Program-made: the position numbers and the translations under genes
Assembly: GCA_037146775.1 (NCBI GenBank)
Contig: JBAWWL010000004.1
Location: 86,471 to 150,470 of the forward strand
Length of the DNA: 64,000 nt
Source of the DNA: Candidatus Omnitrophota bacterium
GTDB taxonomy: Bacteria > Omnitrophota > Gorgyraeia > Duberdicusellales > 4484-171
Direction: 5' to 3'
Part shown: piece by piece, positions 19-36,798 of the stretch
Layout of the letters: each line of letters opens with the position of its first letter
How positions within the stretch are numbered: the first letter of the stretch is position 1
Notes under the pieces: generated by a model
What the model saw: only the letters and a program-made list of their open reading frames with translations
The model's database searches: none
Told to the model about the DNA's origin: nothing

Positions 19-1848
19 TCAATCATTCTCGATAAATTTATTATTCCAGAGGGTTACATTTATCCATTTCCATATTTGCCTGCTTGCGTCTATCTGATTG
101 CGTATGTGCTTCTGATACATTTTAAAACACTGTTTCTGGTCGAAAAATGGGGATTTACGAAAATTATCCGAGTTTAAAATAGTAAGTATGAATTCTTTGA
201 ATCTGGGCTCCCTAAACCATTGCGCACCGGGATTATCGAACCCGATCTTATCTTGCCTATTTCTAATTTTCTCAGGTAAAATTTTTTTCATAGCTTCTCT
301 AAGAATCCATTTATTTTCTCCCTTTCTAATTATGAACGAACTATGGGAACTTAGGGCTTTTTCTACTATTCGATGATCCAAAAAGGGCACCCGCGATTCC
401 AACGAAAACCTCATTGCATTTCTATCTTCCCATTTAAGAAGATGTTCCAATTTGTGTTCGAAATGCTCTATAAGGCTGCTATTTAAACTTTGTGCTTGAT
501 ATAAAATATCCGGTATGGTTAAGTCTTGCCTAAATTGTGATAGAAATTCCAAAGATAGGCTGGTATTTTCTGACACCTTTATTCTCGATTTAATTTTCCC
601 GGACAACAAGAAGTATAAAAATGATTTTAGCCCAAATAATGACTTATGTCTCAAACAATAATAAAAAATTTCACTAAGGAGTGTGTTAAATTTTCTTTTG
701 CACAGTAATTCCTTAAAAAATGTGCCGAAAAAATAATGATACCCCGCAAAGATCTCATCCGCACCTTGTCCGTCCAATAAAACGACTGCGTGGGCTTGCG
801 CCAACTTCATTACCTCGTAATGCACAAAAGGGGCTATGTGCCCGACAGGCTCGTCTATATAGTAGATGAAATCGTGTATGTCGTTTAAAATGTTATCCGC
901 GCCTACATAGGTCTTATATAACCTTTGTCCTAATGCATCCTTAAATTCGTCGATATACTCACTTTCGTCACCGTATTTGTTTTTTCCGTAAACCGCGGAA
1001 AATGTTTGCAAATTATCTTTTTTTAATTCTTTCAGCAGTATGGAAACAATTGTGGAAGAATCTAGGCCGCCACTTAAACATATTCCCAGAGGAACATCGC
1101 TCCTCAAGTGCACATGAACAGAATTAATTAAATCCTCTTTCAATTCTTCGGGGCACGTATAACCTTTTTTTAAATTATCTCTCAGATTGTACCACCTGTT
1201 CATAGAGAAATTATCATCTTTTATTGATATTGTGTGGCCGTGCGGTAACTTTTTAATGCCTTTCAAGAAGGTATCCTCATCATAATCGGTTCGATTGAAA
1301 ACAAGATAGTTATACATTATCTTTTTGTTAATTTCTTTATTTTTTAAAATATGGCTGAAAGGTTTTAGTTCTGAGGAAAAGATAAAAGTATCTTCTGACA
1401 GATAATAATATAAGGGTTTTATACCAAATCTATCTCTGGCCAAAAATAAGTTTTTGTTTTCTATATCAAGTATGGCAAACGCAAACATTCCATTAAATTT
1501 ATCCAAACATCCCGGCCCCCATTCTATAAAAGAGTACAAGACAACTTCCGTATCTGTATTGGAAGAAAAACTATATTTTTGCCTTAGCTCTTTTCGTAAT
1601 TCTAAATAATTATATACCTCACCATTATAAACAATACAAAACCTTCTGTCCGCACTAAACATGGGTTGGTTGCCCTTATCGGTAAGATCTAGAATACTTA
1701 GCCGTAATGCGCCAAGACCCACATGACGGTCAATAAACTGCCCTTGGGCATCCGGGCCACGATGCTGGAGCGACTGAGACGTACGGTATAAGATTTCTTT
1801 ATCTACATCTTTCCCATTAAAATTAAACATTCCGTAAATTCCGCACAT
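19..1848 (-). CDS. asnB: asparagine synthase (glutamine-hydrolysing), AsnB/WbpS-like amidotransferase
   Basis: N-terminal MCGI (Cys2 Ntn nucleophile) and SGGLDSS PP-loop motif; 609 aa; sits inside a glycosyltransferase cluster. Confidence 0.8.
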   Translation of the reverse strand: MCGIYGMFNFNGKDVDKEILYRTSQSLQHRGPDAQGQFIDRHVGLGALRLSILDLTDKGNQPMFSADRRFCIVYNGEVYNYLELRKELRQKYSFSSNTDTEVVLYSFIEWGPGCLDKFNGMFAFAILDIENKNLFLARDRFGIKPLYYYLSEDTFIFSSELKPFSHILKNKEINKKIMYNYLVFNRTDYDEDTFLKGIKKLPHGHTISIKDDNFSMNRWYNLRDNLKKGYTCPEELKEDLINSVHVHLRSDVPLGICLSGGLDSSTIVSILLKELKKDNLQTFSAVYGKNKYGDESEYIDEFKDALGQRLYKTYVGADNILNDIHDFIYYIDEPVGHIAPFVHYEVMKLAQAHAVVLLDGQGADEIFAGYHYFFGTFFKELLCKRKFNTLLSEIFYYCLRHKSLFGLKSFLYFLLSGKIKSRIKVSENTSLSLEFLSQFRQDLTIPDILYQAQSLNSSLIEHFEHKLEHLLKWEDRNAMRFSLESRVPFLDHRIVEKALSSHSSFIIRKGENKWILREAMKKILPEKIRNRQDKIGFDNPGAQWFREPRFKEFILTILNSDNFRKSPFFDQKQCFKMYQKHIRNQIDASRQIWKWINVTLWNNKFIEND

Positions 1849-1857: not shown

Positions 1858-2940
1858 TTATTTAAATTTAAGTTGGTATTGACCGTCTTTCTTCAGGACA
1901 GCAAAGCTTTCTGGATAATTTTCTACAAACCACACCATAAAAGCCGTGGTATCAATATTGTCTTCCATAATCTTTTCTTTTTTACCGCGCCATTTTTCTT
2001 TCAGAAAAGAATCGCTTAATATTTCTATCCCTTTTTGGATGGATTTCTCATATTCGGAAAAAGAGCTGCCAAAATTGAAAATCGTTCCGTACTTTTCTTC
2101 TTGTTCCCTTGTATAATCACGCCCCTTAAAATCCACATAAATTGCCGGGGTTCCTAATAGCGCTGCTTCCGAGGCAGTTTTTGCGCCTTCGGAATAAACT
2201 AGCGCAGCATGATACAGCGCGGCGTGCATTTTCTCGGGTGGGATTGTAATATTGAATTTGTCTAGGCATGACTCCGTCTTCTCTTCCGAAGAAATAAAAA
2301 CTTTGGCATATTTACTGAATTCTTCGACGCATTTGATTTTATATTTTAACGGCATTCCTTTATATCCAAAATCGTGGGTAGCATTTTGCGCGCTAAAACG
2401 TATTATTACAAATTTTTCTGATTCTTTTACTCCTAATTCTGCTAAAACGCTGCTGTCGACGCTGAAATATTTCGGGTGTAGATACGCCAATTCGTGATAC
2501 CCTCGATATGTTATATGTTTTTTACCCAAATTCAGCTTAAGGCTTTCCGGGGATAAAATAATATCCGTAAAGGGTTTATAAAGAAAGATCTGTTCGAGAT
2601 TGCCGGTGTCTTCCATCGATATATGCGGCTTTCGCATTAATTTTGAAACAAAAGCAAAAGCGATGGATCCATGGCTTAAAAATAAATCCGGGTGAAATCT
2701 CACTGAGAACTTTAGTGTTTTAAAAACGAATCTAAACAAACATGCGATTTTTCTCAAAAATCCAACACCGAATTTTCCTAATACGATATACTTACATCCG
2801 TATTTTTCTAATAAGTACGCTGAGCATCCTTTATCTCGCACGGTAAAGAAAACTTCATGCCCTTTTTTCTCTAAAGCCCAGGCAATATTCTTAAAAAGAT
2901 GCACGTGGGCAGGATGACCAATATCAATTAAAATTTTCAT
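1858..2940 (-). CDS. DUF354 family protein (GT-B / UDP-GlcNAc 2-epimerase-like fold)
   Basis: N-terminal MKILIDIGHPAHVHLFKNI...GHEV..TVRDKG pattern typical of DUF354. Confidence 0.55.
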   Translation of the reverse strand: MKILIDIGHPAHVHLFKNIAWALEKKGHEVFFTVRDKGCSAYLLEKYGCKYIVLGKFGVGFLRKIACLFRFVFKTLKFSVRFHPDLFLSHGSIAFAFVSKLMRKPHISMEDTGNLEQIFLYKPFTDIILSPESLKLNLGKKHITYRGYHELAYLHPKYFSVDSSVLAELGVKESEKFVIIRFSAQNATHDFGYKGMPLKYKIKCVEEFSKYAKVFISSEEKTESCLDKFNITIPPEKMHAALYHAALVYSEGAKTASEAALLGTPAIYVDFKGRDYTREQEEKYGTIFNFGSSFSEYEKSIQKGIEILSDSFLKEKWRGKKEKIMEDNIDTTAFMVWFVENYPESFAVLKKDGQYQLKFK

Positions 2941-2945: not shown

Positions 2946-3764
2946 TTAATATGTTGGGCTCATTGTGGCGATAGGCGTGAGGCCGGCGTATACCGGATAA
3001 CCCTCGCGTATTAATAACCTGGCTTCCGTGGGCAAAATGATATCAACCTGCGATCCAAAAACTATTTTTCCTATTTTATCGCTTCGCCGAACTAGCTGCT
3101 TTTCTTCTACACAAGTCTTTATTCTACGCACCATGCGCGAAGCTATCTGGATAACCCCTATGAGACGATTGCCGTTCTTTATGACAATGATGTTTCTTTC
3201 GTTTTGACTGCAGGAATCCGGCAACTTGAGTGACATAAATTTTCCCGCACAATGTTTTATGAGCACTATTTCTCCTTCTGTCGGTGCCCTATTTACATGC
3301 ACATCCAATATCGACATACTAATTCCAATAAGCCAGCAATCAGTATCTAATATGCTTGTCGCTGCGATTTCATCCAAACGGATATTGGCTTTTCCTTTTA
3401 TGGAGGTTGGGATAATGCCTTTTTCCACTTTCCGTATATATATTACTCTGCCATCTGCCGGAGAAACTATAATATTTTTATCGCCATGAAATTGCCTTTC
3501 AGGATCTCTGTAAAATCTCAGCAAAATAACACCGATTATGCTTATAAACAGGGCAAAAATGTTCAGGAAGAAAATCACGGTTGGATTACTGCCATGCATA
3601 ACTATCGCGATATCAATAATAGAGCTTACAAACACGGCAATGATGGCTTCCCGGTAAAAACAACTTTTTGGTAATTTTAATTTATTATACAGAAATAAGA
3701 AAATGAGAAATATGAACAAAACATTCGGAAAAACCAATAACCAATAGCTCACTGTCTCCTCCAT
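2946..3764 (-). CDS. phosphatidylserine decarboxylase family proenzyme (Asd-type, pyruvoyl-dependent) with N-terminal transmembrane segment
   Basis: FYRDPER, SPADG, DVHVNRAP motifs and FGSQV near the C-terminus (LGST-like self-cleavage site); hydrophobic N-terminal 80 aa. Confidence 0.6.
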   Translation of the reverse strand: MEETVSYWLLVFPNVLFIFLIFLFLYNKLKLPKSCFYREAIIAVFVSSIIDIAIVMHGSNPTVIFFLNIFALFISIIGVILLRFYRDPERQFHGDKNIIVSPADGRVIYIRKVEKGIIPTSIKGKANIRLDEIAATSILDTDCWLIGISMSILDVHVNRAPTEGEIVLIKHCAGKFMSLKLPDSCSQNERNIIVIKNGNRLIGVIQIASRMVRRIKTCVEEKQLVRRSDKIGKIVFGSQVDIILPTEARLLIREGYPVYAGLTPIATMSPTY

Positions 3765-4906
3765 ATTATATACGGCAGAAGCAAGGCGTACATCAAGGTG
3801 GGCAGCATATCGTCTTTTGAAAAGATTGCTATTTCTTTTTTAATTCTTAAAGAATTTATATATTCCTTGATACCAATGCGATGCCTTGCTAAACAATTTA
3901 TAAATATAAAAAAGTCGGTAAAAGGATCTACCCACCCCACGTTGGACAATTGATTAATTTTCGGAACCGAATCTTTACCTTCAAAATAATCTATTAACAT
4001 CTTTATAAGATTAATTTCTAATGCATGGGTTATAGAGTGCCACTTCCACGTGCGCGGATTAATTTCTAACAGTTTATATGTACCGTCTTCTTCGTCCCAC
4101 ATGAATTCTATTTCTGACAACCCGCAATAATTGATGCCCTTTAAAAATCTTATGGCGTTGTTTTCTATTTCCTTATTCAATACGCTAATAGCAAAGGTGG
4201 TGGAATTACCAAAATCCATAGGTCTTTGCCGTAGCCTGTTTACCACAACTCCTCCGATAGTTTTTCCATCAACAAAAAATGACCCGAAAGAATAAAGATT
4301 TTTTGCCCCACCGCCTATTATTCTCTGAATAATAATATCCTTGGCGCCTATAATATTTTCCGCTAACTTATAATTACGTACCAACTCTTCCCTGGTGCGG
4401 CAAGGCAAAACTTTTTTACCGACCTTATTAAACAGCTTAAACATGATTGCTGGTTTAATAATAACCGGATACCCTATTTCTTCGGAAAAGATTAAAGCCT
4501 CCTCTAAAGTATGGGGATAACGCGAATCAGGAAAATGGACACCTAATTCTTCGGCTTTTTTATAAGTAAGGATTTTATTAAAACAGGTTTCGGTGACTTC
4601 TTTTGGCGGTATAGAGATAAAAAAGCAATTATGCAGCGTGTCGTAGTTTTCCATCAAAAATCCTACCATCATATCGTTGGTTGGCATCAAAATAGTATCT
4701 TTTTTATCATTATATAATTTTGTTATTTGCTCAATCAAATCCTGATCGTTTTTAAATATAACTGTTTTCGTGCAATATTTAGAAAATCTCGCGAGAGATA
4801 ACCCGTGGTCGGTAAAAAGATTTATCTCTACGCCCAGTCTTCCGGCTATCTGCGCTACGCCTAACGCCTGGATATGATTGCCTAGAATAATTATCTTCTT
4901 AATCAT
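3749..4906 (-). CDS. ATP-grasp domain ligase
   Basis: LEINPR motif characteristic of the ATP-grasp C-domain; Gly-rich N-terminal Rossmann-like region. Confidence 0.55.
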   Translation of the reverse strand: MIKKIIILGNHIQALGVAQIAGRLGVEINLFTDHGLSLARFSKYCTKTVIFKNDQDLIEQITKLYNDKKDTILMPTNDMMVGFLMENYDTLHNCFFISIPPKEVTETCFNKILTYKKAEELGVHFPDSRYPHTLEEALIFSEEIGYPVIIKPAIMFKLFNKVGKKVLPCRTREELVRNYKLAENIIGAKDIIIQRIIGGGAKNLYSFGSFFVDGKTIGGVVVNRLRQRPMDFGNSTTFAISVLNKEIENNAIRFLKGINYCGLSEIEFMWDEEDGTYKLLEINPRTWKWHSITHALEINLIKMLIDYFEGKDSVPKINQLSNVGWVDPFTDFFIFINCLARHRIGIKEYINSLRIKKEIAIFSKDDMLPTLMYALLLPYIIWRRQ

Positions 4907-5670
4907 CAGCTATTCCTGGCCTTCTGAAGTAACATTTTAAACAGATTTCGAATATTCTGACCAACGAACTCAACAGCCCAGCCGCACATATCGTCATTCC
5001 ATCTATTAGGATGAATATTTAACATAATACCATCCGGAAGCTCTCCTCTTTTCAGCGCGGACATAATTTCACAAGTATTATTGAATTTATAAGCGAACTT
5101 GGTGTTGACCTTATCTCTTATGTTCGCTGTATCAGCGTTCCAACTTCTTCCTGTGTCTGTGAGATAAAAAATTTTATTAAAATCCATGGAGATACATGTT
5201 TCTCCCATTATTCCTAAATCAATGAAATTATACTTCTCCCACAATTTTTTATTGTCCCATTTTGAAAACGGCGAGCCATGCGCACAAATTGTTTTTACCG
5301 CTGTAATGTTCTGGAATTCCCCCAATTCTTTCTTAAAAAGCTCGATAGCTTTTCCATAATTCCCGCCCGCCTTTGCCAAAACTTCGTAGTGATATCCAAT
5401 ATCGTGATTTAAATTATAAATTTCTTTTATAATATTTTCGTTAAACGTTTGTGGGTATCGAAAATAATAAGATGCAGATATACCCATTCTTTTTTCTGTC
5501 TGGGCTAATCGTAAAGCACTATGCATCCCCCTATCAACATCGTGCCTCAAAATGCAAGTTTTACCGGTATATTTTTTCTGCAGAAAATCTGAAACATTTA
5601 CAATCTGATAGCCATTGTGCAGCAGGCTTGTGTATAGTTCCATCAAAATTTTTACTGTGAAATCTAACAT
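4906..5670 (-). CDS. polysaccharide deacetylase (carbohydrate esterase 4-like) family protein
   Basis: LRHDVD motif resembling NodB motif 1 variants of polysaccharide deacetylases. Confidence 0.45.
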   Translation of the reverse strand: MLDFTVKILMELYTSLLHNGYQIVNVSDFLQKKYTGKTCILRHDVDRGMHSALRLAQTEKRMGISASYYFRYPQTFNENIIKEIYNLNHDIGYHYEVLAKAGGNYGKAIELFKKELGEFQNITAVKTICAHGSPFSKWDNKKLWEKYNFIDLGIMGETCISMDFNKIFYLTDTGRSWNADTANIRDKVNTKFAYKFNNTCEIMSALKRGELPDGIMLNIHPNRWNDDMCGWAVEFVGQNIRNLFKMLLQKARNS

Positions 5671-5688: not shown

Positions 5689-6681
5689 TTATTGGTTATT
5701 TAATAGCCCTAGCCAATTACTCCTTACCTTTTCCCAAGTAAAACTCATCACTTTTTTATACATATTTTCTCTAAAAGAATCGTACGTGTGTGGTTTTTCT
5801 AGAACGTTACATATATGTTCGCTCAATTTTTTATAATCACCTTTATCAAAAAATATACACTCATTATCGCCATACACGGTAGGCGTTCCGCCGCATCTGG
5901 CAGAGATAACCAGCATTTCAGAAAATCCAGCTTCAACAAGTTTCAAAGGGAAATTGTCGCCGAAGGACGTATTCAAGAGAACGCAACATTGTTGATATTC
6001 TTTCAATAATTCGGTACGCGGCAAAAACCCTTTAAATATTATCTTTTGATGAGCGTATTGTTTTTTCAATTTATCGAGGAGCGGCCCATTGCCAAAAAAA
6101 TAAAATTCTATGTCGTTTCTTTCTTTTAGAACCACTTCGCAAGCCTTGAGGGCCGTTTCAGGATCATACATAAATTGAAACGAACCAATCCAAAGAAATT
6201 TTTTGTTCCAATCAAAATTCTTTTCTCTTTTTGGAAAATTTCCGTAGTGGAAATGATACGGAATAAGATGGGTATTGAATTCGTATTGGTTAAAAATATC
6301 AAAAAGATACTTTGAGGCAACGGTTACCGGGATTTTTCCTAAAAATAGCCTGACCGTCGGGCCCCATCGATTCATGAACGGCCCGGGATAGCCTTCGTGA
6401 AAATCTACTATAACTTTTTTACGAAAAAACCTGGCTGCGATCACCCCCACAAAAATCGGCAAAAATCCGTAGTTGCTGCAACCCGCAGCCATAATTAAAT
6501 CGTATCTAGGGACGATTTTAAAAATATGCGCGATGCTTTTGATTCTATCTCTTATCCTACCGTGTGTAGAGGCAACGTCTACGCAAAAGCCTTCTTCCCT
6601 AAGGCTTCTCACCAATTCCTCAACGGCCCCGGAAAGACCTCCCCAATTAGACCTATAGTTCATGACCGTAAGTATCTTCAT
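5689..6681 (-). CDS. glycosyltransferase family 4 (GT-B)
   Basis: GT-B C-terminal E..G pattern (KLVEAGFSEMLVISARCGG); 4-bp overlap with the upstream gene. Confidence 0.6.
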   Translation of the reverse strand: MKILTVMNYRSNWGGLSGAVEELVRSLREEGFCVDVASTHGRIRDRIKSIAHIFKIVPRYDLIMAAGCSNYGFLPIFVGVIAARFFRKKVIVDFHEGYPGPFMNRWGPTVRLFLGKIPVTVASKYLFDIFNQYEFNTHLIPYHFHYGNFPKREKNFDWNKKFLWIGSFQFMYDPETALKACEVVLKERNDIEFYFFGNGPLLDKLKKQYAHQKIIFKGFLPRTELLKEYQQCCVLLNTSFGDNFPLKLVEAGFSEMLVISARCGGTPTVYGDNECIFFDKGDYKKLSEHICNVLEKPHTYDSFRENMYKKVMSFTWEKVRSNWLGLLNNQ

Positions 6682-8528
6682 CTACGCTCTTGGTGGAATA
6701 AGGCCATCCATAATCTTAAAGAAAAAATAGAAAAAAATCTAAAGTCTCCTTTAAGATTAATATTGTTTTCAAAACCTTTTATTAGTTTATCTGTAAAAAT
6801 TTCGTCGCCGTTGCCTATCTTGGATACATACTTTGTGACCATATCCTTGGACCATAACTCGGATCTAAAGGTATCGTTTCCTTTCAATCTGCGCCTTGCC
6901 CGCTCTTTTAAATACACTGGCCCAATCTTAAGCGCCTTCGCAATAAAAGGCAAAAGAAGCTCTTTAGGTTTATACCCTCTATCTGTAACTATGTCCCCCA
7001 GGACCGGATTAGCCATTTGAATAATTTTGGCATAAAATAATTGACTGTTTATGCGCGAAAAAATATCCGTTTCCCCTGCCCCTTTATACATTCCCAGAAA
7101 TGGCGTTTTGAAAATAAGTTCTAAAAATTCTTCGTCGAGATAAGGAGTTAATGTCTCGACGTAATGGCTTTCAATCCTTATTTCTTGCATAAAATACTTT
7201 CTTGTTGCTTCCTCTAAAAGGAAAATATAAAATCGAGCAAGCTTGTCGAATGATTCCGTCTTTTTGATATAGTGCTTTTCAAAGTCTTCCTTAATTGCGT
7301 GCGAATATTTATCAATAATATCTGCTCTTATATATCCCGTGTTTTTTAGTTGCCTTAAAATATCATTGAATTCCGCATCGAAGTTTTCAGACATAAAAAG
7401 TCTTATTGTTTCTGGGCTAATTTGTTCGGTAGAACGGGAAAAAGGTTTTAAAATTTCGCTGCCGAACAACCCTGTTATATTCACCCTGGAAAAATTACTT
7501 AATTGCGCAAATACATAGGGGAAGTTTGCCCGCAAAATAGGGGCAGTTCCGTCCGAAAAGTCTAATACTTTTAATGCGTAGTCTTCATAATTTTTTTCGA
7601 ATGCTTCACCTAAATGAATTGCCTTATAGTTTAGTCCCAATTTTTTGGAAATAAGTAAGGGTATCTCTATTTGCTTGCTGCCGGGCATACCATATGAGTA
7701 GCATAAAAAATCTTTTGGGTCTCTCTCAAGAAGTGCTAAATTTGTTCTAGAATCAAATCCGGCTGTTAATGAAAGCAGAAATTTATCCGCGTCTGACGTA
7801 TACACTCTTAAATTTTTCTTCATCAAATCACTGCACGCACATAACGCATCTTTTTCCGGAATAAGCTGATCTGCGCACAGCAAGTTTTCTGTGTGCCAAT
7901 ATTTTTGTACTTTTAATCCATTTTTATCAATTTTTAAAATTGACGCGTGGGATAGTTGTAAAATATCATTATAATATGTTTTATCAAACAACGGATAGTA
8001 GAATAGCGTGTGCTCTATCAGGGCTTTTTCGTTTAGTTTTGGTTGAATATCAAGAAATTTAAGTATCAGTTTCATCGAAGAAGAAAATATAAAATTATTG
8101 TCTTTATAATAATAAAATAAAGGCAAAGTATTTAGTTTACTGCTGACAAGAACAAGCTCTTTTATATAGTTATCATAAATGATAACGGTAAAATTTCCTT
8201 TTATGTAATGCGTCATACCCACATTACATTCTTTATACAACACAAACACATCGTTCATTGATAATTTTCTGGGGTTAACCGAGGTGAACTCATTGTGTTT
8301 CTTGCTAGAAAAGGCTGACCCAAATAAAAAAATAGAGAGATTGTCTTGGGACAAATAACAGCTCTCTGCCCGGGGCGCTGGGGCATAACTGATTTCTCCT
8401 TCGGAAAAAGTCGTTGTTGATATATTATTTTCTGGTATATCGGCACGGATACATTTTCTCGAAAAATTTTTTTCTCGATCGAACTTATTTTGTCTAAGAT
8501 TAATTATTCCTATAATGTCTGTTATCAT
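6678..8528 (-). CDS. asparagine synthetase-like protein lacking the N-terminal Cys nucleophile
   Basis: AsnB-like fold throughout (degenerate SGG.DS as TAGFDSR), but the N-terminus is MITDIIG rather than MCG. Confidence 0.55.
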   Translation of the reverse strand: MITDIIGIINLRQNKFDREKNFSRKCIRADIPENNISTTTFSEGEISYAPAPRAESCYLSQDNLSIFLFGSAFSSKKHNEFTSVNPRKLSMNDVFVLYKECNVGMTHYIKGNFTVIIYDNYIKELVLVSSKLNTLPLFYYYKDNNFIFSSSMKLILKFLDIQPKLNEKALIEHTLFYYPLFDKTYYNDILQLSHASILKIDKNGLKVQKYWHTENLLCADQLIPEKDALCACSDLMKKNLRVYTSDADKFLLSLTAGFDSRTNLALLERDPKDFLCYSYGMPGSKQIEIPLLISKKLGLNYKAIHLGEAFEKNYEDYALKVLDFSDGTAPILRANFPYVFAQLSNFSRVNITGLFGSEILKPFSRSTEQISPETIRLFMSENFDAEFNDILRQLKNTGYIRADIIDKYSHAIKEDFEKHYIKKTESFDKLARFYIFLLEEATRKYFMQEIRIESHYVETLTPYLDEEFLELIFKTPFLGMYKGAGETDIFSRINSQLFYAKIIQMANPVLGDIVTDRGYKPKELLLPFIAKALKIGPVYLKERARRRLKGNDTFRSELWSKDMVTKYVSKIGNGDEIFTDKLIKGFENNINLKGDFRFFSIFSLRLWMALFHQERR

Positions 8529-8531: not shown

Positions 8532-9788
8532 TTATAATTTACTTTTCCGTTGTGTCCTTGTTAATAACTTGCTTATTCTGCCAAATTTTCTTATCAAGAA
8601 GGAGCTTGTGTCTTTGCACCACGATAAAAAAGTATATAGCGGGTCCTCTAACATAAATACATCGAATACCTTTTTATAATTCGGATTGGAAATATAAAAA
8701 TATGGAAAAATAAACTCTTTTAGTGTAATCCTTTTTTTGGCTATGGCGCCAATCCCGCCCGATATATCTCCCGGTACCCTGAAACACTCAAAATATATAC
8801 ATTTTTTAGTTGTTACGCTTGTTGGTAAATTCAATAAATCCGCATAATAACCATAACCTATATCAAATCCGCTCCTAAAAAGCAGGTTGGAAAAACCGGG
8901 AAGTCTGGGGTTAAAATCAGTAAGAAAATAATCTTGTTCCTTTTTTGAAAAAATCCAGTCAAGATGCACAAAACCTTTCCAATGTAAATTATTCAACAAT
9001 TTTTTTGTCAATTCTTCAAGGCGGCGGTTACCGATAACTTTGCCGACATAAAGCCTGCTGCCAAAAGTACCGTCACTATTAAAACAGGTTCTTATTTTTT
9101 GTATGCATAAAACCCCTGCGCACTCGCCTCTCTTGTTATATAGACTCTCCGAACACCAAATATCTCGTATCCCACACTCTATAACCTCTTGGGTCATCAG
9201 CGAAGATTTCCTATATTTGTTTTGTGGCGAAGAAATTATATTTTCCATTTCTTTATAATTGCTTTCTAGATTATTTTTGTTTTCTACCTTCCTGTATATC
9301 CCTCCGGCAAGTCGCGTAGCTTTAATTATGCAGTTCTCCGAAAGTGCTTTCCAGCCTTTTTCGGTGTTTTCAATGGTATCAGCGAGAAAAGATTGCGGGG
9401 TATTTATCCCTATACTTTTACAATATGTATAACATTGCCATTTATCAAAAACTTTTTCAAAAGTATCAAGCTCCGCGATGTTCAAGGAATAGCCGCCATG
9501 TATCAATTCAGCTTGTGATTCCGAAATCAGTTCTGCACTAATGTCTCCCGAATAAATTAATACTCCCCGATAAGGTAAGTCCAGTAAAAATTTAATATAT
9601 TCTTTTCCTTTTTCAACCGACGGAGAAATCACGCTTTTGCTTACGAAACGAGATTTAAAAGCAGTGCTGTTAGAAACGGAACTAAGCGCGATGATTGGGA
9701 TTCTACGAATGCCGAAAGAAGCCAAAAGGCCTTCCTGGGAACGTAGTTCGGAATCGGCTAAAATAACCGGTATTGCTTCTTTTGTCAT
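8532..9788 (-). CDS. ATP-grasp domain protein
   Basis: DFNPRLPGF (E/D-x-N-P-R) ATP-grasp signature near the C-terminus. Confidence 0.5.
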   Translation of the reverse strand: MTKEAIPVILADSELRSQEGLLASFGIRRIPIIALSSVSNSTAFKSRFVSKSVISPSVEKGKEYIKFLLDLPYRGVLIYSGDISAELISESQAELIHGGYSLNIAELDTFEKVFDKWQCYTYCKSIGINTPQSFLADTIENTEKGWKALSENCIIKATRLAGGIYRKVENKNNLESNYKEMENIISSPQNKYRKSSLMTQEVIECGIRDIWCSESLYNKRGECAGVLCIQKIRTCFNSDGTFGSRLYVGKVIGNRRLEELTKKLLNNLHWKGFVHLDWIFSKKEQDYFLTDFNPRLPGFSNLLFRSGFDIGYGYYADLLNLPTSVTTKKCIYFECFRVPGDISGGIGAIAKKRITLKEFIFPYFYISNPNYKKVFDVFMLEDPLYTFLSWCKDTSSFLIRKFGRISKLLTRTQRKSKL

Positions 9789-9916: not shown

Positions 9917-10927
9917 CTATCCGGTAATCTTTGTTTCGATAAATTTAATATAATCGCTCATGGTAGTAACATATAATTCCTTGCGGTTCATAGATATGAA
10001 AGAAAATAAACCAGAAAGCACTTCTTTTAAAAATAACCCGTCTGAAGACGGATGAAACCAAAAATGACATAACCGTCGATGTTTAATGGCCCTCTCTACA
10101 ATAGTTGTGTATTTTTTTATGTAATAATCTGCCTTCCATCCATGGCATGATAGTCCTATTTCTGCTGTAGTAGGGCACTGCCAAAGCCCATACGAATCTC
10201 GACGAGGAAAAGCTAAAACGTCTTTATCTATACGGTAAGACGTAATTCCTTCTTCCTTGAGGACGCTGCGATGACCTATAAAATTACCGGGAAAAACAAA
10301 AGATTTCAATTCGACCCCGAAAGAATGCGCGGATTCTTTGCACTTCTTAACCTCTTTGCGCAGCATTTCTGCGGAACAAACCTTTTCTCGACAATCAATA
10401 TGCGAAAAAGTATGACAAGCTATCTCATGTTTAACGCTCGAGCGAATGATTTTCTCGACTAAATCCGGCGCATACCAAGCCGTGGCATCCTGCCAATTGC
10501 AACAAGGATCTTGATCGAACCACTCTCCGGAAAGAAATTTCCAATATTGGTTTTTGAAATGTTTAGGGCTGATCAAATCCGTATGCACCCGGCCGTCTTT
10601 TCTTGAGCAGCTTTCAAGGAAAAGGTGCCCGACCGTTGCCCAGGTCATTGGCACATTAAACTTTTCGCATAATAGCAAAATCCAATCAACATTCTCCCGC
10701 TCTCTTTTGGCAATGGCCTCTGCTTCCTTGATATTACAATGCAGGAATTGTGCGAATCGCCATGCCCAGGTAAGTTCAAAATCGCAAGAGAAAAGAACAA
10801 CCGCCTTATAAGGTTGGGGGATACTTTTGGAGATGGTGCGGTGTGGGTAATAAACAACCTGGGGTTTATTGCCTAGCGCAAAATTAAGCCGGCTCAACGC
10901 CGCTTTTGTCCTTAATAGATATTTCAT
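9917..10927 (-). CDS. putative polysaccharide deacetylase-like hydrolase
   Basis: Weak CE4-like pattern (CDFE, H-x3-H); assignment is tentative. Confidence 0.35.
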   Translation of the reverse strand: MKYLLRTKAALSRLNFALGNKPQVVYYPHRTISKSIPQPYKAVVLFSCDFELTWAWRFAQFLHCNIKEAEAIAKRERENVDWILLLCEKFNVPMTWATVGHLFLESCSRKDGRVHTDLISPKHFKNQYWKFLSGEWFDQDPCCNWQDATAWYAPDLVEKIIRSSVKHEIACHTFSHIDCREKVCSAEMLRKEVKKCKESAHSFGVELKSFVFPGNFIGHRSVLKEEGITSYRIDKDVLAFPRRDSYGLWQCPTTAEIGLSCHGWKADYYIKKYTTIVERAIKHRRLCHFWFHPSSDGLFLKEVLSGLFSFISMNRKELYVTTMSDYIKFIETKITG

Positions 10928-11841
10928 TTTCCACCGCGATAGAGCTGAAGTAATTCTTTATCCGAAATACCCTGCTCGCTTTTCCTGCCTAAGAAATAAA
11001 AACCGCTGGCAGCCTCATAAGAAGAACTTTTACGAATAAAATAGTAATCAAGATATTTCATCCAAAAAGTTAAAAAAACACAAAATACTCCAATCAATTT
11101 TCTCAAAATCTTCTTATCCGTAATGCTCATGAAAAGATACCGAAAACTCCATGCAAACGCGACAGCCGGCCCCACAACAATCCCCCTATCGATTTCCTGG
11201 AATTGCTTAAAAATGCGGCGGTGGCCTAAATCGGTAAAGCGGGTAAAATCGTATGGTTTGTGGTGTGTTTGCTGCATAAATGGTACTTCATTATAAACTA
11301 TGCCGTTCTTTACCAAAACTCGACGCGCCTCTTCGACGCAATGATAGGGATCCATAACATGTTCAAGAACGGCCTGCAGCACAATACCGTCAAGGGATTC
11401 GCTTGCGAAAGGAAGATTGTGTGCGTCGCAAATAATTTGTGTTCGAGGACCAAAAATAACATCGGTTTCAATACACGTTATATTTTTGTTTTCAACTAAA
11501 GCTTTCACCCCCACACCTAAGGTGCCGGCGCCGACAAGAAGTACCAATGGTTTCTGGCTGTGTGCACAAACAAGACGGATTATTTTCTCAAAGTTCGCGG
11601 CGGCCTTAAAATTCTTCGTATCCGTTGGTACGAGTCTGCGAAGTATTGCAAGAATGCTCTTTTTTCCGGTTTCCTGCTCGGTATCATGTTTTTTACTGAC
11701 AATGTCGTTAATGGTAAATATGCTGGTTTCTTCGTTTAACAACACCGGGATCCCATCCACAATCGGAAAATTTTTTTTACACACAGCGCATTGTATGACG
11801 GTTCCAAAAAATAATTTACCGCGACAACAGGGGGCACACAA
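10924..11841 (-). CDS. class I SAM-dependent methyltransferase with N-terminal Trm112-like zinc-finger domain
   Basis: CxxC...CAVCKKNFPIVDGIPVLL (Trm112-like) followed by Gly-rich LLVGAGTLG SAM-binding motif. Confidence 0.6.
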   Translation of the reverse strand: MCAPCCRGKLFFGTVIQCAVCKKNFPIVDGIPVLLNEETSIFTINDIVSKKHDTEQETGKKSILAILRRLVPTDTKNFKAAANFEKIIRLVCAHSQKPLVLLVGAGTLGVGVKALVENKNITCIETDVIFGPRTQIICDAHNLPFASESLDGIVLQAVLEHVMDPYHCVEEARRVLVKNGIVYNEVPFMQQTHHKPYDFTRFTDLGHRRIFKQFQEIDRGIVVGPAVAFAWSFRYLFMSITDKKILRKLIGVFCVFLTFWMKYLDYYFIRKSSSYEAASGFYFLGRKSEQGISDKELLQLYRGGK

Positions 11842-28346: not shown

Positions 28347-28565
28347 CGCTGACTCCTATTATTTTTAGGGTTCGCGTCCATGACAACTCAGATCAAAACC
28401 GTCACCTGTTCTCGTCGGACGGTTCACCAAAAAATTGGCGGATAGAGATTCTCCGTCATTTTTAGATCAATAGAGCAATAGAAAATAGACCGCAATTGAG
28501 CCTGAAGTCTATAGTTCTATTATCTATTGCTCAATTGCTCTGTTTTTTTACCGAAGGTGAAAAAA

Positions 28566-28641
28566 CGGGGACGAAGGGATTTGAACCCTCGGTCACCTGC
28601 GTGACAGGCAGGGGTCTTGAACCAGGCTAGACGACGTCCCC
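28566..28641 (-). tRNA. tRNA-Asp (GTC)
   Basis: Manual cloverleaf fold; anticodon loop CTGTCAC; T-loop GGTTCAAATCC. Confidence 0.8.
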
Positions 28642-28644
28642 AAT

Positions 28645-28766
28645 ATCAGATGTCAGAGGCCGGAGGTCAGAGATCAGATAGCAATTGTATATGGGATTTG
28701 CTTATTGTCAACATTTTATCTCTTTTATTGTCTAACCTCTGTCTTCTGACGTCTGATTTCTGATTT
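28645..28766. repeat. imperfect 15-bp inverted repeats (ATCAGATGTCAGAGG / CTTCTGACGTCTGAT) flanking an 80-bp AT-rich core
   Basis: Read directly from the sequence; 13/15 complementary. Confidence 0.4.
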
Positions 28767-28770
28767 TAAA

Positions 28771-28791
28771 TGGTGGTCGATACAGGACTTG
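28771..28791. repeat. direct repeat of the 3' terminal 21 nt of tRNA-Val (20/21 identical), 117 bp downstream of the tRNA
   Basis: TGGTGGTCGATACAGGACTTG versus TGGTGGGCGATACAGGACTTG at 28908. Confidence 0.7.
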
Positions 28792-28907
28792 TATGCAATC
28801 TCCGACGTAGTCGGAGCGCCGAAGGCAATTATTGCGTCCAAGTCAACATGTTTTGTAAAAGCAGCTGCTTGTCTTGCTATCACAGATTTTCAAAGAAGCA
28901 AAAATAT

Positions 28908-28983
28908 GGTGGGCGATACAGGACTTGAACCTGTGACCTTTTCCATGTCAAGGAAACGCTCTAGCCAACTGAGCTAATCGCCC
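28908..28983 (-). tRNA. tRNA-Val (GAC), CCA encoded
   Basis: Manual cloverleaf fold; anticodon loop TTGACAT. Confidence 0.8.
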
Positions 28984-29022
28984 AAATACGTTCAACGCCA
29001 AACGTTCGCCGTTGAACGTAAC

Positions 29023-29107
29023 TGCCGGGGGCGGGACTCGAACCCGCACGTCCCTCACGGGACAGCAGATTTTAAGTCTGCATTGTCTGCCATTCCAACA
29101 CCCCGGC
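29023..29107 (-). tRNA. tRNA-Leu (TAA), long variable arm
   Basis: Manual fold; anticodon loop CTTAAAA; T-loop GGTTCGAGTCC. Confidence 0.75.
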
Positions 29108-29292
29108 ACGCACATCAAGGGGAACTTTCCCCTTGACACTACGCTCATGAGTAATTCCAGTGAAGCTAAAATCACTTCGTTGTCACCCCTGTAGCTCAAC
29201 CACAGAAGTGTTTTAGCGGTAACCGCTAAATCTTAATAAAATATTTTGTTTTTCGACTCAATGCTATTCGCCACATGTTATACGCTTTTAAA

Positions 29293-29364
29293 AGGCGTGG
29301 GCCGGATTTGAACCGGCGAATAGCGGTTTTGCAGACCGCTGCCTTGCCACTTGGCTACCACGCC
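29293..29364 (-). tRNA. tRNA-Cys (GCA)
   Basis: Manual fold; anticodon loop CTGCAAA; T-loop GGTTCAAATCC. Confidence 0.8.
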
Positions 29365-32341: not shown

Positions 32342-33169
32342 CTAACCTAACCGCTTTGTGATCCTTTCCAGATCTTCCAAACTATAATATTCGATGGCGA
32401 TTTTTCCGCGGTTATTTCGCTTATGAAAAACTCGCACCTTTGTCCCCAAAGATTTTTGCAATGTATCCTCTACTTCCAGCACAAACGGGTCAACGCTTTT
32501 CCGCTTCTTGGAAGCCCTTTGTACCCGTGTCTCTATTTCTCGTACCGAAAGTCCCTCGCTAAGAATGTCCCTGAATAATTTTCTCTGCGCCTCTTCGGTC
32601 TCCATGCCCAGGATTGTCCGGGCTTGACTGCGCGTTATAATCCTCTTACGCACCGCTTCCTTGATTTCCGGCAGCAACCTTTGTAAGCGAAGCGTATTAG
32701 CAATAGTAGTTTTATCCTTGCCGACTACCTGCGCAACATCTTCAAGCGTAAATTCAAACTGTTCGATAAGTTGCTGAAATGATTCTGCTTCGTCGATCGG
32801 GTTTAAATCCTGGCGTTGCAGATTTTCTACGATCGCATAAATCAGTGCGTTTTTGTCATCGAGCTCTTTAATAATTGTTGGTATCTCATTGAGCCCCAAT
32901 GACTTAGCAGCGTGATATCTCCTGCCACCGGCCACTATTTCGTAACTCTCCTCCCCTGTTTTCCTCACGATAATCGGTTGGATTATACCTTTCTCTTTTA
33001 TCGAACGAGCTAATTCCTCCAATTCTTTCGTGTTCATCTCTTTCCGAGGTTGATACCGGCCGGGACTAATTTTATACATGGGTAAGTGAACGTAATCTTT
33101 TGCTGTCTCGAGCATATTTTTTTTCGGGATAAGGGCGTCGAGTCCTTTTCCTAAAACTTTTTTTTCCAT
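32342..33169 (-). CDS. parB: chromosome partitioning protein ParB/Spo0J
   Basis: ParB N-terminal box (GERRYRAA-like: GGRRYHAAK) and HTH; adjacent to parA. Confidence 0.85.
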   Translation of the reverse strand: MEKKVLGKGLDALIPKKNMLETAKDYVHLPMYKISPGRYQPRKEMNTKELEELARSIKEKGIIQPIIVRKTGEESYEIVAGGRRYHAAKSLGLNEIPTIIKELDDKNALIYAIVENLQRQDLNPIDEAESFQQLIEQFEFTLEDVAQVVGKDKTTIANTLRLQRLLPEIKEAVRKRIITRSQARTILGMETEEAQRKLFRDILSEGLSVREIETRVQRASKKRKSVDPFVLEVEDTLQKSLGTKVRVFHKRNNRGKIAIEYYSLEDLERITKRLG

Positions 33170-33963
33170 TACTGGCTTACCTCCTTAACCGCGACTTCAA
33201 TCGCTATTTTTTCTTTTAAAATTTCTTCGGTTAAATTTAGATAGGCTTTTGCCCCCACGCATATCGGATCATAAAAATGTATGGGCTTACCAAAACTGGG
33301 TGCTTCGGCAAGTCTGATGTTGCGCGGGATAATGGTATTAAATGTTTTTTCTTTAAAAAAATTCCTTACCTCTTCGATGACCTGTAACGTAAGCCGTGTC
33401 CTAAAATCCGCCATAGTCAACAAAACGCCCCTGATCTCCAAGCCAGGATTTAACCGTTCTCGAACAAGATCGGTGGTATGTAATAGTTTTGAAACTCCTT
33501 CCAAAGCATAATATTCACATTGTATGGGCACAATAACCCCATCAACAGCCACCAGCACATTAACGGTCAAAAGCCCCAGGGATGGCGGGGCGTCAATAAT
33601 AATATAGGCAAATTTGTCTTTTATTTTATAGAGCTCCTCTCTTAAGCGCATTTCTCTATTTTCGATAGCAACAAGCTCAATCTCTCCTCCGGTAAGCGCA
33701 ATACACGAAGGAAGAATGTATAGTCCGGACCATTGGGTAGGATAAATACTTTCTTCTATGGCCGCTGTTCCAGAAATAATATCATAGATTGATTGTTTGT
33801 TTTCGCTTGCAACCCCTAAGCCTGATGTAGCGTTACCTTGGGGATCCATATCAACAAGCAGTGTTTTTTGACCAGCAAGAGCTAAATATGATGCTAAATT
33901 GATGGCGCTGGTAGTTTTACCAGTACCGCCCTTTTGATTACAAATACCGATTATTTTTCCCAT
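33169..33963 (-). CDS. parA: chromosome partitioning ATPase ParA/Soj
   Basis: Deviant Walker A KGGTGKTT. Confidence 0.85.
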   Translation of the reverse strand: MGKIIGICNQKGGTGKTTSAINLASYLALAGQKTLLVDMDPQGNATSGLGVASENKQSIYDIISGTAAIEESIYPTQWSGLYILPSCIALTGGEIELVAIENREMRLREELYKIKDKFAYIIIDAPPSLGLLTVNVLVAVDGVIVPIQCEYYALEGVSKLLHTTDLVRERLNPGLEIRGVLLTMADFRTRLTLQVIEEVRNFFKEKTFNTIIPRNIRLAEAPSFGKPIHFYDPICVGAKAYLNLTEEILKEKIAIEVAVKEVSQ

Positions 33964-33976
33964 TATGGTTTGACGG

Positions 33977-34000
33977 TACCGTTTCCACGTGGAAACGGTA
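33977..34000. promoter_or_regulatory. parS-like perfect 24-bp palindrome TACCGTTTCCACGTGGAAACGGTA, 14 bp upstream of the parA start codon
   Basis: Core TTCCACGTGGAA is identical to the parS core; perfect dyad symmetry. Confidence 0.55.
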
Positions 34001-34150
34001 TACTTAGTTATTAAAAATAGCTTTTAATATATAAATAAGTATATTGCGATATTCTTGTATTTTTTCTAAATATAATATCATTGTAATCGCACATACCCCC
34101 CTTTGTCAAGAAAATTTTGTATTAGATGCCTAAAAAATTGCGTTTTGAGC

Positions 34151-34166
34151 GTTTCCACGTGGAAAC
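34151..34166. promoter_or_regulatory. parS-like 16-bp palindrome GTTTCCACGTGGAAAC (copy 2)
   Basis: Exact repeat of the copy-1 core. Confidence 0.5.
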
Positions 34167-34631
34167 TTTACCTACCTAAAACAAAAATCCAGACTATTTT
34201 GTACGATAACGTAATTACTGCTGCTGTCAACCTTTGAAATAATAGTACTGTTTCTCAATCAATTGTTTTGGTTGTTCGTTTAATATAATAACTATGCAAA
34301 AATAGAATAATACCGTTTGCAAATTATTTTTATGCTTTTCAATAGCAAGATATTGCCATATGTTATTGTTTTAACACTCGCGGAGTACGGTAGTAAGTAT
34401 TGATTGTCATATTCTAGGGCCTTTTTGACGCAACAAGCAGAATAAGTATGCTACCATAGATTCTTAAGAAACATTCGAAGACAGCTCAATAGCAATTATA
34501 TAGTATGTTCTTAAATTGTCACCATGCTGAAAATTTTATCCTTATTAACCAATCTGCAGGTATCATAAAGGCATGAAGCACATTTATGCTTGATTACCAA
34601 AGGTGGTTATTGAAAAAAGACCTTTTTGTAC

Positions 34632-34649
34632 CGTTTCCACGTGGAAACG
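34632..34649. promoter_or_regulatory. parS-like 18-bp palindrome CGTTTCCACGTGGAAACG (copy 3)
   Basis: Exact repeat of the core. Confidence 0.5.
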
Positions 34650-34765
34650 TCTAACTTGTAGATAATCCGGGATGTGTGGCTATGCGAATTGCTGTAGGTT
34701 AATAAGTCGCCTTGAGGTTTACTCTGTGCGGAAAATTCTGATATTAGAAAAAACTGTTGTTTTTA

Positions 34766-36545: not shown

Positions 36546-36747
36546 AGGTAGCAATTGTAACATATCTTGTTTTCGTGTCAACTATAAAAATTGCGTTTTT
36601 TTGGGTGCGCCGAAAAGAATCGTTGCTCGCACACCGCTCAATGATCTTTTTTTTGTTTCAGGTAAACGTTCTCGCCCGGACCGCTACAACATGCTGCTGG
36701 TTTTTACCAAAAAACAACTTGGTGATTGGCGGGTAAACTAAAATAAT

Positions 36748-36775: not shown

Positions 36776-36798
36776 TGGGGTTACTGTAAAAAGTCTTT

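Follow-up and report, generated by a model that had tools for sequence, protein, structure and literature searches.

A phosphatidylserine-decarboxylase-family proenzyme paired with an ATP-grasp ligase in polysaccharide gene clusters: a candidate glycan-tailoring enzyme

What does a pyruvoyl enzyme of the phosphatidylserine decarboxylase (PSD) family do inside a polysaccharide gene cluster? The question is raised by a gene in a 64,000-nucleotide stretch of a Candidatus Omnitrophota metagenome-assembled genome (MAG; GenBank assembly GCA_037146775.1, contig JBAWWL010000004.1, positions 86,471 to 150,470), the whole of which is called the window here. A sequence-only reading had proposed that the encoded proenzyme, set between an ATP-grasp ligase and a DUF354 protein, decarboxylates a serine or aspartate moiety on a lipid-linked glycan. 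From its sequence, predicted structure, and gene neighborhoods, we give an even chance to the view that this PSD-like protein is an active, self-processing pyruvoyl decarboxylase of a distinct subfamily, paired with a dedicated ATP-grasp ligase in surface-polysaccharide pathways, which would decarboxylate an amino acid after its ligation.

The proenzyme, its clade, and its gene neighbors

The assignment to the PSD family was borne out. The protein matches Pfam family PF02666 (PS_Dcarbxylase) with an E-value of 1.2e-37 and 130 bits (gathering cutoff, 22), its residues 81-264 aligning with profile positions 5-196 of 198, and the four motifs that the sequence-only reading had named lie at residues 84-90 (FYRDPER), 101-105 (SPADG), 156-161 (HVNRAP), and 236-240 (FGSQV). 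NCBI carries the gene as MEI8349365.1, a "phosphatidylserine decarboxylase" of 268 residues from a Ca. Omnitrophota MAG. Its start is ambiguous: ATG 3764 gives 272 residues and a 16-nt overlap with the ATP-grasp gene, and the alternative GTG 3752, four codons downstream, gives 268 residues, a GTGA overlap with the TGA stop of the ATP-grasp gene, and a well-placed GGAGGAG Shine-Dalgarno sequence. Judging by these signals, the GTG, which is also the choice made by NCBI, looks more likely; residues are numbered here from the ATG.

Alignment confirmed that the self-cleavage site and the catalytic residues are conserved. The G-S site is present in all 85 loci compared, and S238 is predicted to become the pyruvoyl group, leaving a beta chain of residues 1-237 and an alpha chain of 35 residues (238-272). 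In Escherichia coli PSD, D90/D142-H144-S254 carry out autocleavage, and H144 recognizes the departing carboxylate (PMC7952604). The window protein keeps all four as D104 (D90), D154 (D142), H156 (H144), and S238 (S254), the cleavage serine standing in FGSQ here and in LGST in E. coli. Among the loci surveyed, H156 is invariant and D154 is kept in 27/28 ATP-grasp-linked and 57/57 pssA-linked cases, and N-E-R and Q-I-A motifs are common to both groups and to E. coli PSD. Since the G-S cleavage site and the catalytic residues are intact, the enzyme should be active.

The predicted structure agrees with this assignment. An AlphaFold2 model built with 38 homologs (pLDDT 90.4) consists of three long N-terminal helices followed by a beta-rich core, and the only significant Foldseek matches among solved structures were PsiD and E. 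coli PSD, both with probability 1.00. The helices (residues 7-29, 33-56, and 61-84) coincide largely with Kyte-Doolittle hydrophobic segments at 3-29, 36-59, and 58-87, in line with the membrane anchoring noted in the earlier reading. Four Lys/Arg residues lie in the loop 27-38 after the first transmembrane helix and four more after the third; this charge pattern fits the positive-inside rule and predicts a cytoplasmic catalytic domain. The protein nevertheless falls under every NCBIfam equivalog cutoff for PSDs and archaetidylserine decarboxylases (Asd). The best score was for NF003685 (173 versus a cutoff of 183), followed by TIGR00164 (166 versus 230), the remaining PSD/Asd models being far under their cutoffs; NF038088 (anchor_synt_D, the archaeosortase-linked PssD) gave 107 bits against a cutoff of 240.

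Relatives were surveyed by scanning one genome per GTDB species with an alignment of the clade, keeping the best 80 of >600 matches, and analyzing the loci by script. The comparison comprises 85 non-redundant loci, 28 of which are ATP-grasp-linked (G, or GSQ, clade) and 57 pssA-linked (C clade), with adjacency counted over the loci that had enough flank. A neighbor-joining tree of 85 non-identical sequences, computed on their catalytic domains, midpoint-rooted, and built without an outgroup, splits the two clades without exception and places the window protein in G, apart from the pssA-linked lipid PSDs. The cleavage motif is [FLW]GSQxD in G and FGSRxD in C (GSQ in 28/28 G loci, GSR in 55/57 C loci), and the G proteins are about 265-290 residues long versus 205-240 in C. 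Gene neighbors also separate the clades: a same-strand homolog of the ATP-grasp gene of the window lies directly upstream in 23/27 G versus 0/52 C loci (Fisher p=3.6e-16), a pssA-type gene directly downstream in 0/26 G versus 47/55 C loci (Fisher p=1.6e-14), and DUF354 directly downstream in 15/25 G versus 0/55 C loci. The pssA counts for canonical short PSDs agree with the earlier premise that PSD genes normally sit with pssA. These calls were made with regular expressions and validated on annotated records of Ruegeria pomeroyi and Parabacteroides distasonis, in which psd is followed by pssA and by a CDP-alcohol phosphatidyltransferase gene, respectively. In the window itself, a six-frame motif scan of the whole 64 kb detected neither a CDP-alcohol phosphatidyltransferase (pssA) or PLD/HKD motif nor a further PSD, which matches the earlier remark that pssA is absent nearby.

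The order ATP-grasp, PSD-like, DUF354 is kept by homologs at 55%, 53%, and 42% identity and by more distant ones, including a Bacteroidales MAG, one labelled Methanomicrobiales, and one on a 2-Mb contig. The clusters around this trio otherwise differ, and in one locus (L006) a WecG/TagA glycosyltransferase takes the place of DUF354. G loci that do not carry DUF354 are likewise of the polysaccharide type and contain Wzz/GNVR kinase, DegT, or Wzy genes. Across 29 non-redundant G loci, an ATP-grasp gene co-occurs in 25, DUF354 in 17, the deacetylase family X254 (see below) in 16, an AsnB-like gene in 10, and a 313-residue GT4 protein in 9. An exhaustive phmmer search against 1.84 billion representatives returned 111 clusters at 50% identity with E<=1e-30; down the ranking, the residue after the cleavage serine is Gln to about 120 bits and Arg below. 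The G clade ranges over Omnitrophota, Bacteroidota, Cloacimonadota, Verrucomicrobiia (Verrucomicrobiota), Anaerolineae (Chloroflexota), Thermoleophilia/Solirubrobacterales (Actinomycetota), and a Shewanella MAG, with archaeal members in Thermoplasmatota and Nitrososphaerota, and a search of a plasmid collection returned canonical psd genes only, with no cassette-type member. Saccharicrinis sp. FJH62 and Tunicatimonas are among the carriers in culture. One member, entered at NCBI under "Methanomicrobiales archaeon" (P0103; loci L007-L009), lies on contigs with Por_Secre_tail (type IX secretion system) and SprB/PKD giant-protein genes; because these are typical of Bacteroidota, its label is probably a binning error.

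Several arrangements tie the PSD-like gene to its partners more closely. Apparent fusions that retain the GSQ site join it in one polypeptide to the ATP-grasp ligase (P0322 and P0347, 695-696 residues), to a formyltransferase (P0281, 474 residues), or to a class I S-adenosylmethionine (SAM) methyltransferase (P0311, 521 residues). In a Thermoplasmatota locus (L029:153-2858), the PSD-like gene, of the GSQ type, overlaps the gene of a polysaccharide deacetylase (PF01522+DUF3473) upstream and that of a GCS2-family carboxylate-amine ligase downstream. Another ATP-dependent amide ligase thus holds the place of the ATP-grasp, which looks like a non-orthologous replacement. In Solirubrobacterales (L025:6849-10247 and L026:7492-11976), flavin monooxygenases with Lys/Orn-N-hydroxylase-type matches flank the PSD-like gene, the order in L026 being DUF354, monooxygenase-like, PSD-like, ATP-grasp; these neighbors hint at N-oxygenation of an amine product. 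The recurring theme is a deacetylase, an ATP-dependent carboxylate-amine ligase, a PSD-like decarboxylase, and a glycosyltransferase, with amine-tailoring enzymes in some lineages. A separate arrangement was seen on a Ruegeria pomeroyi megaplasmid (L091:2426-4501), where psd and pssA are followed by a gene for a class I SAM-dependent methyltransferase, perhaps a phosphatidylethanolamine (PE) N-methyltransferase, in parallel to the P0311 fusion.

Some of the residues that set the clades apart align with phosphate contacts of E. coli PSD, in which Tyr137, Ser166, and the backbone of Val167 hold the head-group phosphate of phosphatidylserine (PMC7952604). In a gap-free alignment to 7CNW, these correspond to positions 149, 178, and 179 of the window protein. 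Position 149 is Phe in 100% of C, Asn, Ala, or Ser in G, and Ser in the window; position 178 is variable in C and Ser in G and in the window; positions 179 and 212 are Ala in C, but Leu and Val, respectively, in both G and the window. Position 239, which follows the pyruvoyl serine, is Arg in 96% of C and Gln in 100% of G. In addition, the G clade has a stretch of 17 residues (119-135) in which K123 and E132 do not vary; E. coli PSD also has this stretch, where it aligns with AKGHNYSLEALL, but the C clade does not. The pattern is suggestive of a G clade that keeps the decarboxylation machinery while the surroundings of the phosphatidylserine phosphate have changed and the cationic residue beside the pyruvoyl group has become neutral; the mapping of the phosphate contacts is itself only suggestive because it comes from a sequence alignment at 18% identity.

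Proposed chemistry and rival explanations

We consider the chances evenly balanced that the enzyme decarboxylates an amino acid already ligated to a glycan, the most likely form being aspartate or glutamate on an amino sugar. A sugar of an undecaprenyl-linked repeat unit would first be made ready on the cytoplasmic side of the membrane, where a CE4-type deacetylase, present in many loci, would expose its amine. The ATP-grasp ligase would then join an amino acid by its side chain, most plausibly through the beta- or gamma-carboxyl of aspartate or glutamate to the sugar amine or, alternatively, through the omega-amine of a diamino acid to a uronate. The alpha-amino and alpha-carboxyl groups would stay free, and the ligated residue would mimic a phosphoserine head group with a neutral linker. 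The pyruvoyl group of the anchored PSD-like enzyme, derived from S238, would form a Schiff base with the alpha-amine and remove the alpha-carboxyl, yielding a pendant primary amine of the beta-alanyl, 4-aminobutanoyl, or diamine type, which in some lineages would be formylated, methylated, or oxygenated. The net effect would be the removal of a negative charge and the display of an amine on the glycan.

This scheme is constrained by the chemistry of the enzyme class. To remove the alpha-carboxyl of a substrate, pyruvoyl decarboxylases depend on a free alpha-amine, and the Schiff base has been seen in E. coli PSD (PMC7952604) and in PsiD (PMC11929908). Because of this requirement, an amino acid bound to a uronic acid via its alpha-amine cannot be a substrate. 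An amide-linked serine was likewise down-weighted, since N-acylated serine has no free amine for the Schiff base, which leaves O-linked serine or side-chain-linked aspartate, glutamate, and diamino acids as compatible. The earlier proposal of serine or aspartate on a lipid-linked glycan thus stands in part: decarboxylation on the glycan is favored and aspartate is the chemically more plausible residue, while serine in amide linkage loses ground. A beta-aspartyl or gamma-glutamyl amide would swap the C-O-P of phosphoserine for C-C(=O)-N, which would explain the lost phosphate-binding residues. A free amine after decarboxylation would fit the associations with formyltransferase, methyltransferase, and N-oxygenase, and the predicted cytoplasmic catalytic domain would lie on the same side as the ATP-dependent ligase and the undecaprenyl-diphosphate-linked intermediates. 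Aspart-4-yl amino sugars do occur in O-antigens (PMC10609480). More tentatively, and at somewhat less than even chances, the ATP-grasp and PSD-like pair may be a widespread two-step glycan-tailoring module, in which side-chain ligation is followed by decarboxylation in situ by a membrane-bound pyruvoyl enzyme.

One alternative is canonical phosphatidylserine decarboxylation: the gene would be the housekeeping psd of the organism, placed by chance among glycan genes, or would supply PE locally, for example as a phosphoethanolamine donor or as a lipid to anchor the polymer. This would agree with the NCBI annotation, with an NF003685 score near the cutoff, with the presence of all catalytic residues, and with a membrane anchor that suits a lipid substrate; the search for a second psd in this MAG covered the 64-kb window, and the psd-pssA-methyltransferase order of Ruegeria resembles the P0311 fusion. 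However, every PSD/Asd equivalog cutoff was missed, the protein belongs to a clade separate from all pssA-linked PSDs, and neither the neighbors of G members nor the 64-kb window show the pssA that accompanies most C members. The linked or fused ATP-grasp has no role in PE synthesis, the altered phosphate contacts and the Arg-to-Gln change after the pyruvoyl serine argue for another head group, and the clade is patchy and set in variable polysaccharide loci; it occurs in Bacteroidota, a phylum from which a canonical psd-pssA pair is known separately, in Parabacteroides. We regard this explanation as highly improbable. A relocated housekeeping psd was accordingly rejected as the principal interpretation on clade, context, and residue evidence; the GSQ signature, the changed phosphate-contact positions, the three-helix N-terminus, and the co-inheritance or fusion with ATP-grasp across many phyla all bear out the earlier view that the gene is not simply of this kind. 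The idea of a dead or structural PSD-like pseudoenzyme, or of a spurious reading frame, has a next to negligible probability in view of a Pfam E-value of 1e-37, the invariance of G237, S238, D104, and H156 with D154 nearly so, about 110 clusters at 50% identity, a fold predicted with high confidence, and translational coupling within an operon.

A reversed order of steps deserves more weight, although we consider it rather unlikely. The PSD-like enzyme would decarboxylate a free or phosphorylated amino acid (for example, serine, phosphoserine, aspartate, ornithine, lysine, or diaminobutyrate), and the ATP-grasp would ligate the resulting amine to a uronic-acid carboxylate, as in the glucuronamide pathway of Campylobacter jejuni. 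PSD-fold enzymes that act on free amino acids exist (PsiD), the C-terminal part of C. jejuni Cj1438 (Cj1438C) is a characterized ATP-grasp that amidates the C6 carboxylate of glucuronic acid with amines, related clusters carry UDP-sugar 6-dehydrogenase, WbpB-like, and WbpD-like genes that point to uronic acids, and the linkage and fusions of the genes would suit either order equally well. On the other side, all clade members keep an anchor of 80 residues and two to three transmembrane helices, which would be needless for a soluble substrate; a monoamine would be consumed in the amide bond, leaving the links to formyltransferase, methyltransferase, and monooxygenase-like proteins unexplained unless a diamino acid were used; the recurrent CE4 deacetylase and the deacetylase-decarboxylase-GCS2 operon of L029 suit an amino-sugar acceptor better; and the partner ATP-grasp, unlike Cj1438, is not TupA-like. 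It is very unlikely, in our estimate, that the product of the pair is something other than a glycan, for instance a small molecule or an atypical amino-lipid (such as a compound of the hydroxamate type), with the location of the pair in polysaccharide loci being secondary. The Solirubrobacterales pair, flanked by Lys/Orn-N-monooxygenase-like flavoenzymes and extra ATP-grasps, is reminiscent of siderophore or natural-product chemistry, and a formyltransferase fusion exists; yet nearly all loci, the one in the window included, place the pair among glycosyltransferases, Wzy/Wzz, exporters, and initiating phosphoglycosyl transferases, with a GT-B or GT26 protein directly after it, and L026 itself has DUF354 beside the monooxygenase-like gene.

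Post-ligation decarboxylation on the glycan has points against it as well. The substrate, the amino acid, the product, and the order of ligation and decarboxylation are all matters that we infer from sequence and gene context, and the predicted substituent has no match in any known glycan structure of the organisms that carry the cassette. The relatives found for the ATP-grasp partner are generic (biotin carboxylases and carbamoyl-phosphate synthetases) and point to no specific tie with D-aspartate ligase, the assignment of DUF354 as a glycosyltransferase is weak, and the phosphate-contact mapping derives from the 18%-identity alignment, with a posterior of about 0.6-0.7 at position 149. Furthermore, the clade boundaries rest on a sample, the best 80 of >600 matches, and a ligase is missing from the short contigs of L031 and L033, two deep-branching loci of the GSQ type.

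The consequences would be both practical and biological. Annotation now names every PF02666 protein "phosphatidylserine decarboxylase", which is probably wrong for about 110 clusters (50% identity) in many phyla. The GSQ subfamily can be diagnosed in sequence by G-S-Q, the lost Tyr/Phe phosphate contact, and a long N-terminus with several transmembrane helices, and in context by an adjacent or fused ATP-grasp and no pssA. If the proposed chemistry is true, post-ligation pyruvoyl-dependent decarboxylation would be a new type of polysaccharide-tailoring reaction, the PSD fold, known to act on phospholipids and on free amino acids, would extend to a third class of substrate, and among pyruvoyl/PSD-fold enzymes this one would be the first known to use an amino acid bound to a glycan. 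Capsules, O-antigens, or S-layer glycans of Bacteroidota, Omnitrophota, Actinomycetota, Chloroflexota, and archaea would then carry beta-alanyl, 4-aminobutanoyl, or diamine-type cationic handles, which could be formylated, methylated, N-oxygenated, or used as attachment points, and bacteria that are abundant in the environment and for the most part uncultured would bear unrecognized amine substituents on their surface glycans. Charge-altering groups on glycans matter for resistance to phages and antimicrobial peptides, for adhesion, and for immunogenicity. The module is small, consisting of a ligase and a decarboxylase with or without a deacetylase and a glycosyltransferase.

The polysaccharide cluster and the rest of the window

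The PSD-like gene is surrounded by about 26 kb of polysaccharide genes, comprising GT1/GT2/GT4 glycosyltransferases, a Wzy-like protein, an ABC exporter, Bac_transf, deacetylases, AsnB-type amidotransferases, and methyltransferases (Table 1). Its position between the ATP-grasp and DUF354 genes in a polysaccharide operon is as the earlier reading described it, all three genes being on the same strand, with the GTGA overlap on one side and a 5-nt gap on the other.

Table 1. Features of the window, with positions counted along the 64,000-nucleotide stretch
Feature	Position	Strand	Basis or remark
Glutamine-hydrolyzing asparagine-synthase-type amidotransferase, cluster end	19..1848	-	MCGI... N-terminus; PF00733 242 bits; TIGR01536 445 bits
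DUF354 protein, probably GT-B-fold glycosyltransferase	1858..2940	-	PF04007 76 bits; starts 5 nt past PSD-like stop
PSD-superfamily pyruvoyl proenzyme, GSQ (ATP-grasp-linked) clade	2946..3764	-	PF02666; 272 residues from ATG 3764
G237-S238 codons, predicted autocleavage site	3051..3056	-	G237, S238, Q239 invariant in 38 clade members
D154-V155-H156 codons (E. coli PSD D142-Y143-H144)	3297..3305	-	alignment to 7CNW
N-terminal membrane anchor, residues 1-84	3513..3764	-	three predicted transmembrane helices (AlphaFold2 model and hydropathy)
Partner ATP-grasp carboxylate-amine ligase	3749..4906	-	Pfam CPSase_L_D2, ATP-grasp_3, ATPgrasp_Ter only; translationally coupled to PSD-like gene
X254, Pfam-less 254-residue divergent CE4-type metal-dependent deacetylase	4906..5670	-	AlphaFold2 model and profile
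GT1-family glycosyltransferase	5689..6681	-	PF00534; orthologs at same position in L001, L002
AsnB-like amidoligase without N-terminal Cys nucleophile	6678..8528	-	weak GATase_7; TIGR01536 75 bits
Second ATP-grasp ligase, paralog of partner ligase	8532..9788	-	ATP-grasp_3, PRK12767-type matches
Polysaccharide deacetylase beside second ATP-grasp	9917..10927	-	PF01522
Methyltransferase	10924..11841	-	Methyltransf_11
tRNA cluster Asp-GTC, Val-GAC, Leu-TAA, Cys-GCA	28565..29364	-	between polysaccharide region and origin
Chromosomal replication-origin region	32342..44673		
parB + parA	32342..33963	-	
yidC	34766..36202	-	
dnaA	36838..38169	+	
dnaN	38205..39362		
gyrB	39651..42014		
gyrA	42205..44673		
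tRNA-Glu	44768..44844	+	
tRNA-Arg	55741..55814	+	

The partners of the PSD-like gene are less readily classified. The DUF354 protein has weak matches to Glyco_transf_4 and TIGR00661; its profile gave only weak matches, to UDP-GlcNAc 2-epimerases and MurG, and its GT-B matches among solved structures were non-significant. In the literature, DUF354 is described as no more than a possible glycosyltransferase whose catalytic residues are not conserved. Single-sequence and profile searches with the ATP-grasp partner returned only generic biotin-carboxylase, carbamoyl-phosphate synthetase, and Ddl relatives. For X254, the sequence alone gave nothing and a profile search gave weak CE4 matches, while its AlphaFold2 model (pLDDT 88.7) matches the CE4 esterases/deacetylases 2j13, 2vyo, and 2c1g with a probability of about 1.0. 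Within the family, D44, H89, and H94 do not vary, at least 90% of members have D46, and the motifs RHDVD and HEIGYH are seen. The X254 family is large and well conserved, with >7,900 database matches at E<=1e-5, and would deserve to be defined as a separate family.

In the same cluster lies a second trio that resembles the first, made up of the PF01522 deacetylase, the second ATP-grasp, and the AsnB-like protein, whose N-terminus reads MITD... and not MCG... and which has a PP-loop-like SLTAGFDS. By analogy, this trio may install a pendant amino acid and then amidate it instead of decarboxylating it, in parallel to AslA/AsnH in peptidoglycan. The methyltransferase, also inside the cluster, carries a Trm112/YcaR-like zinc-ribbon segment in its N-terminal part and hydrophobic stretches in its C-terminal part; it may be a tailoring enzyme.

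The window also holds the region of the chromosomal replication origin. Gene orientation and GC skew both change sign there, with the skew turning at about 34-36 kb. Since this region is in the same window, the polysaccharide cluster lies within about 10-35 kb of oriC.

Comparison with known systems

Full-text literature searches returned no description of a PSD homolog in polysaccharide, capsule, or O-antigen clusters, nor of one paired with an ATP-grasp; the Lipocone paper contains no description of the GSQ-clade cassette, and nothing specific was found on beta-alanyl sugars. Judged by sequence and gene order, the GSQ clade with its conserved cassette would be a new functional subfamily of the PSD superfamily, undescribed in the literature searched. 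The features that we propose for it, namely GSQ, an N-terminus of about 80 residues with several transmembrane helices, the insertion 119-135 with K123/E132, and an ATP-dependent carboxylate-amine ligase that is adjacent or fused, all hold for the window protein, whose ligase is adjacent.

The closest known enzymes are the short-type PSDs and archaetidylserine decarboxylases (PRK05305 sub-models and TIGR00164; Ruegeria pomeroyi and Parabacteroides distasonis), which belong to the same PF02666 and are 30-35% identical to the window protein. They share with it FxRxPxR, SPADG, DVHxN..P, NER, QIA, the G-S site, and an N-terminal membrane anchor, although the anchor has about 45 residues and one transmembrane helix in the short-type enzymes versus about 80 residues and two to three helices here. 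The window clade differs in having GSQ instead of GSR, Asn/Ala/Ser instead of Phe149, L179/V212 instead of Ala, and the extra segment 119-135; it is never beside pssA and nearly always beside an ATP-grasp, whereas the short-type PSDs are pssA-linked. A PSD-family enzyme in non-housekeeping cell-surface biogenesis is known from the archaeosortase-associated PssD (NF038088). In that system the decarboxylase is paired with a PssA homolog and makes a lipid, while the window protein has an ATP-grasp partner and, within the 64-kb window, no PssA. E. coli PSD (PDB 7CNW-7CNZ and 6L06) has the same fold but is only 18% identical to the window protein; its H147 is replaced by Arg or Cys, its LGST by FGSQ, and the residues at the Y137 and V167 positions have changed. 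Its membrane contact is made by amphipathic monotopic helices, in contrast to the hydrophobic transmembrane helices predicted here.

In the glucuronamide pathway of C. jejuni HS:2, an ATP-grasp of the polysaccharide cluster (the C-terminal part of Cj1438) makes a sugar amide, and amine-generating enzymes lead to ethanolamine- or serinol-type substituents. The Campylobacter decarboxylase is pyridoxal-phosphate-dependent and soluble and acts before ligation, and the Cj1438C ATP-grasp is TupA-like, whereas the window ligase falls with CPSase_L_D2/ATP-grasp_3 and outside the TupA-like family. PsiD, the L-tryptophan decarboxylase of psilocybin biosynthesis (PDB 8X4Q and 8ZIA), is the top structural match and a self-cleaving pyruvoyl enzyme of the PSD fold with a non-phospholipid substrate (PMC11929908). 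Unlike the window protein, to which it is 19% identical, it is soluble and fungal, has a GGSS site, acts on a free aromatic amino acid, and has no ligase partner. A fungal PSD-like arginine decarboxylase is reported as another non-lipid precedent for the fold; neither of the two is membrane-anchored, ligase-coupled, or glycan-associated, as the window protein is predicted to be.

The nearest parallel in logic is the peptidoglycan D-aspartate ligase AslA/Aslfm with AsnH. This ATP-grasp proceeds through a beta-aspartyl-phosphate intermediate, after which AsnH modifies the free alpha-carboxyl (PMC4155827). As in our proposal, a side-chain carboxyl is joined to the amine of a lipid- or nucleotide-linked envelope precursor and the alpha-carboxyl is then neutralized, and the window cluster likewise has ATP-grasp ligases and AsnB-type enzymes, with the decarboxylase in addition. 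The two systems differ in that AslA/AsnH amidate the alpha-carboxyl on a peptide stem, whereas in the window cluster it would be removed by a pyruvoyl decarboxylase from an amino acid carried by what is presumed to be a glycan sugar.

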